Position numbers and translations under genes: made by a program. From Escherichia coli (GTDB lineage Bacteria; Pseudomonadota; Gammaproteobacteria; Enterobacterales; Enterobacteriaceae), in the NCBI RefSeq assembly GCF_017348835.2, contig NZ_CP071375.1: a stretch of 64,000 nt of DNA, one strand, 5' to 3'. Of this stretch, positions 17,912-26,101 are shown one piece after another (position 1 is the stretch's first letter; every line of letters begins with the position of its first letter). The notes below the pieces were generated by a model. That model was not told the DNA's origin and ran no database searches. It worked only from the letters and a program-made list of their open reading frames with translations.

Positions 17912-17936
17912 AAGGCCTTCTCCTGGAGAAGGCCTT
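17912..17936. terminator. Hairpin between convergent-looking ilvC end and ppiC end
   Basis: aaggccttctcc-tgg-agaaggcctt perfect stem; no clear T-run, so terminator function uncertain. Confidence 0.4.
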
Positions 17937-21112: not shown

Positions 21113-21147
21113 GGCCGGAAAAGATGCGTCAGCATCGCATCCGGCAC
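21113..21147. repeat. REP-like palindromic element
   Basis: gccggaaaagatgcgtcagcatcgcatccggca; same core as REP copies at 42636-42742. Confidence 0.5.
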
Positions 21148-21154
21148 TTACTCA

Positions 21155-22639
21155 TTAATGCACTTCCAGCGGCCAGTGGACATAGCTCTGCCACTGGCTT
21201 TCCTGAGCAATAATCTCTTTACCCAGCGGATGTTGGGTTAGCCAACCGTGCGGAAGCGTCAAGGTCAACAGTTCATGGTTAGCCTGTAATGTCATCTCTG
21301 GCACGAGATCGTCACGGCGACGGCTGGCAAAAATGATAGCCAGGCGGAGTAAACGGCAGAGTTGTTCTGCGACGCGCGGCGGTACGGCATTTTGCTGATG
21401 CAGCGATGAGAGATCGACCGGATTAGTCTGGTTGAGCAGTAGCGTCGCCAGCAATTTTTTCTGTGCGGGGGTAAAACCGGGAAGATCCAGATTACGCACC
21501 AGATAAGCAGCGTGTTGCGGCGCTTGTTTGAAGTCAACGCTCAGGCCGATTTCATGAAGCTGACAGGCGCTGATGAGCAAATCGCGGCTTATTGCTTCAA
21601 GATGCCATTCGTTTTCCACCTGATCGAAGAAGTTAGCCGCAACTTTGGCTACGCGCTGTGCCTGATCAATATCGATCATAAAGCGGCGTTGAATATTACG
21701 CAGCGTACGGCTGCGAATATCCTGCTCGACGGCCAGATGCAACATGCCGTAGACCAGGCCTTCACGCAGCGCACCGCCCGCCAGGGTCATACACTGAATA
21801 TTCAGTTCGGTAAAAATGGCGATCAGGATCGCCAGACCACTCGGGAACACTAACGCACGTTCCAGCGTCAGCCCGTCAATCTCTAGCTCTTCCAGCCGAC
21901 CGCAATGAATGGCGCGTTGTTTCAGTTGCTGCAACTTTTCCAGGGTAATGCGTTCATCCATCCCCTGTGCCATCATGATTTCCTGTAGCGCCTGCACGGT
22001 GCCGGAAGCGCCAACGCACACTTTCCAGCCGTGATACCGTAATTCATCGGCAACCGGACGTAACACTTCGCGTGCCGCTTTTTCTGCAGCATCAAAATTT
22101 TCCTGCCCCAGATTACGATCGGCAAAATAGCGTTCCAGCCAGGTGACGCAGCCCATCGACAGGCTAAACAACGAGGTGGTTTGTGCACCCGTGCCGGTTA
22201 CCAGTTCAGTACTGGCTCCGCCTATATCCACCACCAGGCGCTGATCGGCACCACCAGTGGTGTGAGCAACGCCCTGATAAATCAGACGTGCTTCCTCTTC
22301 ACCGCTGATCACCTGTACCGGACAACCGAGAATTTCCTGCGCTTTGGCAATAAAATCACCCGCATTGACGGCAAGGCGTAACGTCGCCGTAGCGACAACG
22401 CGAATTTGCGAGGGAGGAATATCTTGCAGACGTTCAGCAAACAGGCGCAAACATTGCCAACCGCGCTCCATTGCTTCATTGGAGAGGGCATTTTCGCTAT
22501 TCAGGCCAGCAGCCAGACGCACTTTGCGTTTTATTCGCGTCAGCGTCTGGATGCTTCCAGCCACCTCGCGCACAACCAGCATATGAAAACTATTCGAACC
22601 GAGATCAATGGCTGCATACAGCGACGAGGTGGAACCCAT
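21155..22639 (-). CDS. gppA: Guanosine pentaphosphate phosphohydrolase / exopolyphosphatase family
   Basis: Start trimmed to [23 protein letters not shown] (494 aa); Ppx/GppA fold. Confidence 0.9.
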
Positions 22640-22684
22640 ACTCTTCATCCTTCAATCTGTCTCTGTGTTGGCTGCATTCTTTCA

Positions 22685-22716
22685 CCTGAATCACTTACTA
22701 CAGTAAGTGATTCAGG
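22685..22716. repeat. Perfect inverted repeat, 15-bp arms with 2-bp centre
   Basis: cctgaatcacttact-ac-agtaagtgattcagg read directly between rhlB stop and gppA start. Confidence 0.9.
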
Positions 22717-22772
22717 ATTCATTCTCTTGCCATCTTGATACAGTTTGAATGATTTTGAGTATGACATTTTAT

Positions 22773-24038
22773 TTAACCTGAACGACGACGATTACGCGGA
22801 GCGCCAGTACGACGCGGACCATTGCCTGTACGCGGGCGCGTGAGGCGCAGCGGTTTTGGCAGATCGGTCATCAATGCGTCCGGATTGTATTTGCTTACCG
22901 GAATTGAGTGACCAATATAGGTCTCAATAGCAGGCAAATTCAATGCATACTCTTCACACGCTAGGCTAATAGAGTGACCGCTTGCGCCTGCGCGACCTGT
23001 ACGACCAATACGGTGAACGTAATCTTCACAGTCATCGGGTAAATCGTAGTTAAAGACGTGCGTCACTGCCGGAATATGCAAACCACGCGCGGCAACGTCG
23101 GTGGCAACCAGAATATCCAGATCGCCACGGGTAAATTCATCAAGAATACGCAGACGTTTTTTCTGCGCGACATCGCCTGTCAACAAACCGACACGATGAC
23201 CATCTGCCGCCAGGTGGCCCCAGATCTCTTCACAACGGTGTTTGGTATTGGCGAAAATAATCGCTCTGTCTGGCCACTCTTCTTCGATCAGCGTTTGCAG
23301 CAAACGCATTTTTTCTTCGTTAGAAGGGTAGAAAAGTTCTTCTTTAATACGGTGGCCCGTTTTCTGTTCCGGTTCCACTTCAATATATTCGGCATTGTTC
23401 ATCTGCTCGAACGCCAGTTCACGTACCCGGTACGAAAGCGTGGCGGAGAACAGCATGTTGAGGCGCTGGTTTGCAGGCGGCATACGGCGGAACAGCCAGC
23501 GGATATCTTTAATAAAGCCTAGATCGTACATGCGATCGGCTTCGTCCAGTACCACTACCTGAATGGCACCGAGGTTAATGTGGTTCTGCTTGGCGTAGTC
23601 AATTAAACGACCCGTGGTGCCAATCAGAATGTCAACGCCGCTTTCCAGCACTTTCAGCTGTTTGTCGTAGCCATCACCACCGTAAGCCAGACCCAGCTTC
23701 AGGCCGGTAGCTTCCGCCAGCGGTTCTGCGTCGGCATGGATCTGCACGGCAAGTTCACGCGTCGGTGCCATAATTAAGGCACGCGGTTGATTCACCTTGC
23801 GATCGGCAATCGCAGGATGAGAGAGAAGATAATGAAACGTTGACGTAAGAAACGCCATCGTTTTCCCGGTACCGGTTTGCGCCTGCCCGGCTACGTCACG
23901 ACCCGCCAGCGTCAGCGGAAGGGCCAGTGCCTGAATGGGCGTACAGTTATGAAACCCTTTTTTTTCAAGGGCTTCTACAACCTTCGGATGCAGGGCGAAG
24001 TCGGAAAACTTCTGTTCTGTTAAATGTGTTTTGCTCAT
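22773..24038 (-). CDS. rhlB: DEAD-box RNA helicase RhlB
   Basis: 421-aa [39 protein letters not shown]... with DEAD motif. Confidence 0.92.
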
Positions 24039-24168
24039 AGTGTGGTAGAATATCAGCTTACTATTGCTTTACGAAAGCGTATCCGGTGAAATAAAGTCAA
24101 CCTTTAGTTGGTTAATGTTACACCAACAACGAAACCAACACGCCAGGCTTATTCCTGTGGAGTTATAT

Positions 24169-24498
24169 ATGAGCGATAAAATTATTCACCTGACTGACGA
24201 CAGTTTTGACACGGATGTACTCAAAGCGGACGGGGCGATCCTCGTCGATTTCTGGGCAGAGTGGTGCGGTCCGTGCAAAATGATCGCCCCGATTCTGGAT
24301 GAAATCGCTGACGAATATCAGGGCAAACTGACCGTTGCAAAACTGAACATCGATCAAAACCCTGGCACTGCGCCGAAATATGGCATCCGTGGTATCCCGA
24401 CTCTGCTGCTGTTTAAAAACGGTGAAGTGGCGGCAACCAAAGTGGGCGCACTGTCTAAAGGTCAGTTGAAAGAGTTCCTCGACGCTAACCTGGCGTAA
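24169..24498 (+). CDS. trxA: Thioredoxin 1
   Basis: Start trimmed to [41 protein letters not shown] (109 aa), WCGPC active site. Confidence 0.95.
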
Positions 24499-26084: not shown

Positions 26085-26101
26085 ATTTGTCTTATGCCAA
26101 A

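Follow-up and report, generated by a model that had tools for sequence, protein, structure and literature searches.

ERIC/IRU elements are imperfect palindromes of ∼127 bp, which carry short terminal inverted repeats and one conserved central inverted repeat (PMC2229807; PMC6066780); TA at the termini is among the features listed in Table 1 of PMC2229807. As summarized in PMC2229807, the elements are cotranscribed, fold into long RNA stem-loops and affect mRNA stability. Their insertion is also reported to duplicate a TA target site. In Yersinia, ERIC elements are reported to have orientation-dependent effects on the stability of the flanking transcripts; in the model that goes with these effects, translating ribosomes prevent the folding of the element, with one RNase E site exposed (De Gregorio et al. 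2005, as described in PMC2229807 and PMC3184786).

Imperfect inverted repeats are also substrates of a known mutational process. In E. coli, quasipalindrome template switch occurs when a stalled nascent strand is templated by the other arm of the repeat, which makes the repeat 'perfect or more perfect' (PMC7202029). Mutations of this type are represented by the work of Ripley (1982), by the thyA hotspot and by the lacZ QP reporters of the Lovett laboratory (PMC7202029), and evolutionary correction of imperfect to perfect inverted repeats in proteobacteria has been described by Lavi et al. 2018 (PMC5941160).

The two subjects meet between rhlB and gppA. According to PMC9239193, the two genes are cotranscribed in E. 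coli, and in Dickeya they make up a single unit. In V. cholerae, rhlB-gppA is an operon with a 7-bp gap, as confirmed by RT-PCR; the contrary guess for E. coli, namely that gppA is monocistronic and has its own promoter in the rhlB-gppA spacer, can be found in the same paper (PMC7552824). Here, we analyzed one perfect palindrome located in this spacer. Very probably, the palindrome is an ERIC core, one arm of which was rewritten by a template switch in a minority of E. coli, and it is present as an RNA stem-loop in the rhlB-gppA mRNA. Both the repeat family and the mutational mechanism are known; only the perfected allele and the locus-specific relay arrangement described below are new.

The palindrome is the core of an ERIC element

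The window analyzed in this study is one 64-kb stretch of E. coli DNA. The region of interest is 100% identical to E. coli O145 strain RM9872, and the gene names were taken from the RefSeq annotation of that identical record. Both genes are on the minus strand: rhlB, the upstream cistron, occupies positions 22773–24038, and gppA, the downstream cistron, occupies positions 21155–22639. The spacer is 133 nt in length. Between the rhlB stop codon and the gppA start codon, at positions 22685–22716, the plus strand of the window reads CCTGAATCACTTACT-AC-AGTAAGTGATTCAGG; the two 15-nt arms are 100% complementary and flank a 2-nt center. A sequence-only reading of the window had already reported a perfect palindrome with 15-bp arms and a 2-bp center at this place, after the rhlB stop and before the gppA start, and both the arms and the CDS coordinates agree with it. 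In RNA form, the palindrome gives one 14-bp stem with a 4-nt loop. No perfect inverted repeat whose arms are ≤10 nt apart is longer in the whole window; in 20 shuffles of the window, the longest arm was 8–10 nt. The identical 32-mer is present in 133 independent complete E. coli genomes (of 5,426; ∼2.5%), once in each, and the sequence is therefore not an assembly artefact.

One ERIC/IRU element has the palindrome as its central inverted repeat. The element (positions 22637–22763, minus strand) is ∼127 nt in length, has the termini CATACTC...GAGTATG and fills the whole rhlB-gppA intergenic region. One outer imperfect inverted repeat, whose 27-nt arms (22637–22663 and 22737–22763) are 78% complementary, brackets the palindrome. 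The 129-nt rhlB-gppA element shares 70% identity with the E. coli repeat in the pgk-fbaA intergenic region; the match runs end to end over 126 nt. The pgk-fbaA copy in turn agrees at 43 of 44 positions with a 44-mer derived from the ERIC1R and ERIC2 primers, the sequences of which are both printed in 246 papers. The primer core matches the K-12 rhlB-gpp copy at 32 of 40 positions and the window allele at 28 of 40.

The copy number is also that of a dispersed repeat family. With the pgk-fbaA copy as query, the median number of matches in an E. coli genome is 13 (range 3–21); with the rhlB-gppA element as query, 1–5 places are matched per genome, the pgk-fbaA copy among them. The pgk-fbaA repeat also matches plasmids, and its hits cover Salmonella, Klebsiella, Citrobacter, Enterobacter, Rahnella, Pantoea and Vibrio (at least 10 genera). 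Alignment with five paralogs from four genera revealed common termini, ATACTC...GAGTAT, and a common core; the terminal inverted repeats of the rhlB-gppA element, (C)ATACTC...GAGTAT(G), have TA at the termini, as in the paralogs. When the 64-kb window was scanned with an ERIC profile, no further copy came up.

In size, termini and RNA stem-loop, the rhlB-gppA element is like the ERIC/IRU family as described by De Gregorio et al. 2005 and by Wilson and Sharp 2006, both as cited in PMC2229807, and its length, termini and long stem-loop are consistent with that description. The likeness extends to the conserved central inverted repeat, to the intergenic, cotranscribed position beside a stop codon, to the multi-copy occurrence in Enterobacteriaceae and Vibrio, and to presence/absence polymorphism at orthologous sites, which is seen for the rhlB-gppA copy too. 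Two features set it apart. Different from the family consensus and from all other copies examined, which keep a block of mismatches, the core in the window is a perfect palindrome with 15-bp arms; and the rhlB-gppA copy provides the Shine-Dalgarno (SD) sequence and the start codon of the downstream gene together with a conserved through-reading ORF.

At the gathering and E-value thresholds, Rfam offered no family for the hairpin; the only hits were chance matches to miRNA and plastid hairpins and one sub-threshold match to V_AS5 (Vibrio RNA AS5, RF02818). In the latter, model positions 1–129 were aligned to window positions 22641–22764 on the minus strand with 24.7 bits. The rhlB-gppA element resembles V_AS5 in its long-hairpin architecture and in the full-length coverage of the model; however, the score is well under the gathering score of 96, and membership was rejected. 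The match probably reflects an ERIC-like nature of that Vibrio RNA.

The sequence-only reading had treated the palindrome as a free-standing site, a view that was to be given up if the sequence belonged to a known repeat family. By the pgk-fbaA match, the copy number and the paralog alignment, it belongs to ERIC/IRU and is the core of a repeat of ∼127 bp. The palindrome is thus ordinary repeat-family DNA, and there is no case for pursuing it as a new regulator site.

Filled and empty rhlB-gppA junctions

To compare orthologous junctions, one genome per species was scanned with GppA, which gave 80 loci. In 54 species the site is empty: the gppA ATG follows the rhlB stop codon after 3–11 nt, as in TAA-GAAAAT-ATG. 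In 23 species the site is filled; the spacer is 88–205 nt in length and contains the same ERIC element in the same orientation. Other Escherichia, some Citrobacter, Salmonella enterica subsp. diarizonae, one Kluyvera, Klebsiella, one Raoultella and one Lelliottia are among the filled species. As 54 species have the empty junction and 23 the filled one, the element represents an insertion between two tightly coupled genes. Comparison of the empty and filled sites yielded no unambiguous TA target-site duplication; the junctions have diverged.

Filling is patchy within genera. S. enterica subsp. diarizonae is filled and arizonae is empty; Kluyvera genomosp. 1 is filled and three other Kluyvera are empty; Raoultella terrigena is filled, R. 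ornithinolytica and R. planticola are empty. Such a distribution implies repeated gain, loss or horizontal exchange at one site.

Some filled junctions are further modified. In Raoultella terrigena and Enterobacter sp. 10-1 (loci L056 and L058:1290–1494), the 3′ half of the ERIC element carries one 72-nt G+C-rich insertion, and the spacer is 205 nt in length; this insertion may be a second small element nested in ERIC. In K. pneumoniae (L063:245–368) and one Klebsiella MAG (L048:1361–1482), the termini are ERIC-like (ATGCCATACGC ... GATGAAGAGTATG) and the frame is open over 35–37 codons; the interior between them is unrelated G+C-rich sequence, and the ERIC core has apparently been replaced.

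A 40-codon ORF runs through the element

The ERIC element and the palindrome within it are traversed by one 40-codon ORF (positions 22645–22767, minus strand). The ORF opens with an ATG 5 nt after the rhlB stop codon and closes with a TGA 5 nt before the gppA ATG; in the empty-site species, it is the gppA ATG itself that sits 3–11 nt after the rhlB stop. Of the 23 filled loci, 17 keep the frame intact and end it at the same point. In 20 of the 23, frame 0 has no stop but the terminal one, and the other frames contain up to five stops. Independent indels in the ORF preserve the frame: −21 nt in E. albertii, −45 nt in two Citrobacter and +30 nt in Intestinirhabdus. With the 72-nt insertion of R. 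terrigena and Enterobacter sp. 10-1, the through-ORF closes after 19 codons. In the pgk-fbaA paralog, the corresponding frame is closed by TAA; openness of the frame is therefore specific to the rhlB-gppA locus. The perfect allele alters two codons of the ORF (DE to ES).

The K-12 version of this exact peptide is present among the putative translated sequences of one PIRT-Seq study, a screen with a reporter transposon, as CDS171; it was supported by 164 reads and was not tag-validated, and the study makes no connection between CDS171 and ERIC (PMC12350097, S.Table 2). The Ribo-RET supplement of Stringer et al. has no entry for the 40-codon ORF.

Ribosomes translating the ORF would open the stem-loop and then hand over to gppA. 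In the simplest reading, the ORF would be a translational relay, by which the coupling of gppA to rhlB survives the insertion of the hairpin. In known systems of translational coupling via short bridging ORFs, the ORF likewise starts a few nucleotides after the upstream stop and ends a few nucleotides before the downstream start, and the SD of the downstream gene is likewise hidden in a stem, which a translating ribosome would melt. Different from those systems, the relay at the rhlB-gppA junction is deduced from the arrangement, with CDS171 as the only experimental hint. The Yersinia proposal is also different: as described in PMC2229807, the outcome put forward by De Gregorio et al. 2005 was that the upstream transcript decays through RNase E rather than that translation is passed on to the gene downstream. 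The rhlB-gppA locus illustrates the accommodation of a mobile repeat between two tightly coupled genes: an ORF is kept through the repeat, and the start codon and SD come from the terminus of the repeat. What ERIC elements do, which is still poorly understood, can thus be put to the test at this locus.

The A-run between the rhlB stop and the ORF ATG (22768–22772) varies by 2 nt among E. coli, as seen by comparison with positions 3859–3865 of locus L001. The spacer is 133 or 135 nt in length accordingly, and the distance from the rhlB stop to the next ATG is 5 or 7 nt; this variation is probably due to homopolymer slippage.

The perfect core is a derived allele

The element of K-12 differs from that of the window in one arm of the core: the transcript 5′ arm is CCCGATGAGCTTACT in K-12 and CCTGAATCACTTACT in the window, and the other arm is identical. 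Among the 5,426 complete E. coli genomes, 1,639 carry the K-12-type core, which includes O157:H7, and 1,852 carry the O111-type core (...GAGCATACT...); these two commonest cores, both imperfect, account for 64% of the genomes. The mismatches of the imperfect core comprise one conserved 3×3 internal loop (U.U, G.A, A.G) plus one G-U pair. The mismatch block is carried by all six other E. coli variants sampled, and the core is imperfect in 16 of 17 orthologs from seven genera and in all five paralogs. Because paralogs, orthologs and other E. coli alleles are imperfect and the perfect form is rare, the perfect core is derived.

The rewritten arm, which corresponds to the transcript 5′ arm, is located at positions 22702–22716. 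Positions 22708, 22709, 22710, 22711 and 22714 differ from the K-12-type core, and position 22706 differs in addition from the O111-type core. The other arm (22685–22699), the inferred template, is identical in perfect and imperfect E. coli alleles. It contains the E. coli-specific TTCAGG, which is TTCGGG or TTTGGG in other species. The changes are strongly clustered: the perfect allele and K-12 are separated by 5 substitutions within 7 bp, whereas their alignment as a whole has 41 differences over 5,308 bp; from the O111/YJ6 haplotype, the perfect allele differs at 6 of 9 bp (22706–22714) and at no other position of the 201 bp compared.

Carriers of the perfect core include O145:H28 strains, among them the match of the window, strains labelled ST361 and one pigeon/poultry group. 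To weigh a single origin of the allele against a recurrent one, we used 8 local haplotypes and two 1-kb similarity searches. Five of the carriers show 25–73 differences among themselves in 5.3 kb, and their local haplotypes are varied; the four-gamete test fails for the perfect allele with sites located 119 and 224 bp away. Such a mix could come from short-tract recombination after a single origin or from recurrent mutation.

RNA structure and transcript context

The whole spacer is predicted to fold as one long RNA stem-loop, with an MFE of −52.9 kcal/mol and a z-score of −4.95 against shuffles. The consensus fold of 17 orthologs contains 32 pairs, 6 of which show compensatory changes. The translation-initiation region of gppA is located in the 3′ terminal arm of the ERIC element (22637–22652, minus strand), with the SD AAGGA at 22648–22652 and the ATG at 22637–22639; both in the predicted structure and in the 17-ortholog consensus fold, this SD is base-paired with the 5′ arm of the element.

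The alleles differ in predicted strength. The folding energy of the core RNA hairpin is −9.1 kcal/mol for the K-12-type, −5.2 kcal/mol for the O111-type and −21.2 kcal/mol for the perfect core; for the whole element RNA, the values are −33.9, −29.7 and −46.6 kcal/mol, respectively. The perfect allele is thus predicted to stabilize the core hairpin by ∼12 kcal/mol compared to the K-12-type.

The element is intergenic within a transcription unit, as rhlB and gppA are on the same strand; the support for cotranscription comes from the K-12 literature, not from the window strain. Downstream of the hairpin, the mRNA strand reads UGAAAGAAUG and contains no U-run. The terminator consensus scan flagged only the antisense plus strand, where the stem has 6 G-C pairs among 14 and the T-rich tail is interrupted. 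In the supplement of PMC7815308, the K-12 Term-seq minus-strand 3′ ends of this region are located after gpp (3962698) and inside rhlB (3965375), and two condition lists give none for the spacer (3964230–3964364). An intrinsic terminator was rejected on the missing U-run and on the absence of a spacer 3′ end from those lists; the sequence-only reading had likewise held that the palindrome is not a typical intrinsic terminator. Its suggestion of an RNA processing or stability hairpin finds partial support: a hairpin in the mRNA fits the cotranscription and folding reported for ERIC elements, although it is not a stand-alone element. Within the bicistronic rhlB-gppA mRNA, the element would act, if at all, as an RNA stem-loop, not as a DNA operator or a terminator.

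In strains with the perfect allele, the strengthened hairpin might serve as an RNA 3′-end element, which would cause pausing or termination, or block 3′-5′ exonucleases, leaving a stable rhlB-only mRNA and an uncoupled gppA. The fall of the core energy from −9.1 (or −5.2) to −21.2 kcal/mol is in its favor, and so is the modulation of flanking transcript stability reported for Yersinia ERIC (PMC2229807, PMC3184786). However, no U-run follows the stem on the mRNA strand, the K-12 Term-seq lists, which bear on the imperfect allele, hold no 3′ end in the spacer, and the hairpin lies inside a seemingly translated ORF, whose translation would melt it. With these points set against the folding energies, we regard such a 3′-end function as unlikely. 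The default reading is that the perfect allele would be a tolerated, near-neutral mutational by-product.

Origin of the perfect arm

The arrangement of the changes points to the way in which the perfect arm was made. All 5 changes relative to K-12, and all 6 relative to the O111-type, are in one arm, and each is the exact complement of the other arm. A simulated templated copy of arm 22685–22699 gives 22702–22716 exactly. One of the changes turns a G-U wobble into A-U, which RNA pairing has no need for, and the C to T change at 22714 pairs with the A that is peculiar to the right arm of E. coli itself (TTCAGG). Since the T at 22714 pairs with this E. coli-specific A, the donor was the own arm of the element, not another ERIC copy; and since the G-U pair was already acceptable and 22714 matches the A of the own arm, DNA templating is favored over stepwise selection for RNA pairing. 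As judged from sequence comparison, the perfect arm most likely arose by a quasipalindrome template switch at replication, apparently in a single step.

In the proposed mechanism, the nascent leading strand would copy arm 22685–22699 and the spacer, then fold back (or cross the fork), so that arm 22685–22699 templates 22708–22714. After the templated tract the strand would realign, and 7–9 nt would have been rewritten as the exact complement. The predicted DNA hairpin energies are −3.3 kcal/mol for the 5-bp apical stem of the K-12-type core, −0.9 kcal/mol for the O111-type and −13.9 kcal/mol for the perfect core; the apical DNA stem of 5 bp that would prime the fold-back is available to the K-12-type core but not to the O111-type. 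The GC skew of the window is positive, so the plus strand is the leading strand and the rewritten arm would be made second on it. In K-12, oriC is located ∼39 kb counter-clockwise of the rhlB-gppA locus.

The rhlB-gppA core shares with the described quasipalindrome mutations (Ripley 1982; the thyA hotspot and the lacZ QP reporters; PMC7202029) the conversion of an imperfect into a perfect inverted repeat by a clustered multi-nucleotide change in one arm, whose bases are dictated by the other arm; a short apical stem is available as primer in the K-12-type core. Different from the reporter systems, the rhlB-gppA case is a natural polymorphism inside a mobile-element-derived repeat and an mRNA, deduced from population data. 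The mutational mechanism is already known and is here met with as a natural polymorphism. The locus provides a clean natural example of a quasipalindrome that became a perfect palindrome in E. coli populations, and it can be read there which state is ancestral, which arm was the template and how the change is oriented with respect to replication, which makes the locus useful for modelling multinucleotide mutations.

The perfect stem could also have been built stepwise, through selection for compensatory substitutions that stabilize the RNA, and compensatory pair changes do occur elsewhere in the hairpin (6 of 32 pairs in the ortholog alignment). We consider this highly improbable, as one arm holds every change and the other is untouched, one of the changes swaps an acceptable G-U for A-U, and the 3×3 internal loop is otherwise conserved across genera and paralogs. 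No partial allele was present among the sampled variants, and the two commonest cores are a full 5 or 6 changes away. The search for intermediates covered 13 sequenced variants and three allele counts, with ∼1,800 genomes of other cores outside it, and the identity bands of the genome searches are too coarse to exclude intermediate alleles strictly.

Even less probable is a DNA operator, at which the perfect palindrome would bind a dimeric regulator of gppA (or rhlB). A dimeric protein-binding site had been suggested by the sequence-only reading; the long perfect dyad symmetry immediately upstream of gppA and the promoter predicted in the E. coli rhlB-gppA spacer (PMC7552824) agree with it. 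However, the symmetry is derived and present in 133 of the 5,426 genomes, the common alleles and the ancestral core being asymmetric, and the sequence is repeat-family DNA. The promoter/terminator scan found no sigma-70-like promoter on the gene strand of the spacer, and the two genes are reported to be cotranscribed (PMC9239193). Searching the 64-kb window for the half-site with ≤3 mismatches returned only the two arms and four weak 3-mismatch matches; regulon-like recurrence was not seen in the window. As the symmetry is not conserved, the scan gave no promoter-like site in the spacer and no further half-sites occur in the window, a conserved dimeric operator was rejected. In general, perfect short genomic palindromes can be young mutational products, not selected binding sites.

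Replacement of the arm through gene conversion from another ERIC copy in the genome is scarcely credible: ∼13 detectable copies per E. coli genome could recombine, but the other aligned copies carry CCCCAGGAGCTTAC-type arms, not CCTGAATCAC, the new arm complements the right arm of the locus itself, including the locus-specific TTCAGG, and the 32-mer occurs at the rhlB-gppA locus only.

For the template switch, recurrent origin is plausible because its product is deterministic. A bolder version would take the ERIC element as a domesticated relay and its core as a template-switch hotspot, which flipped more than once (in unrelated lineages such as O145:H28 and ST361-like strains); with each flip, a much stiffer hairpin would stand in the way of the ribosome and measurably change the GppA level and hence the pppGpp/ppGpp balance. 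We see only a small chance that this version is correct.

Other features of the window

Three other perfect inverted repeats in the window are longer than any found in the shuffles. They are located at position 58600 (14-nt arms, 5-nt spacer), at position 26100, just after the rho ORF (12-nt arms, 4-nt spacer), and at position 17912 (12-nt arms, 1-nt spacer). In the convergent rep-gppA spacer, positions 21113–21174 on the minus strand gave one weak naRNA4/REP-like match of 26 bits, which is below threshold; the gpp 3′ end in the K-12 Term-seq lists of PMC7815308 (3962698) falls in the region corresponding to these positions. Upstream of trxA, positions 24099–24198 on the plus strand match the Rfam family TrxA_thermometer (RF02773) with 78.8 bits, compared to a gathering score of 58.
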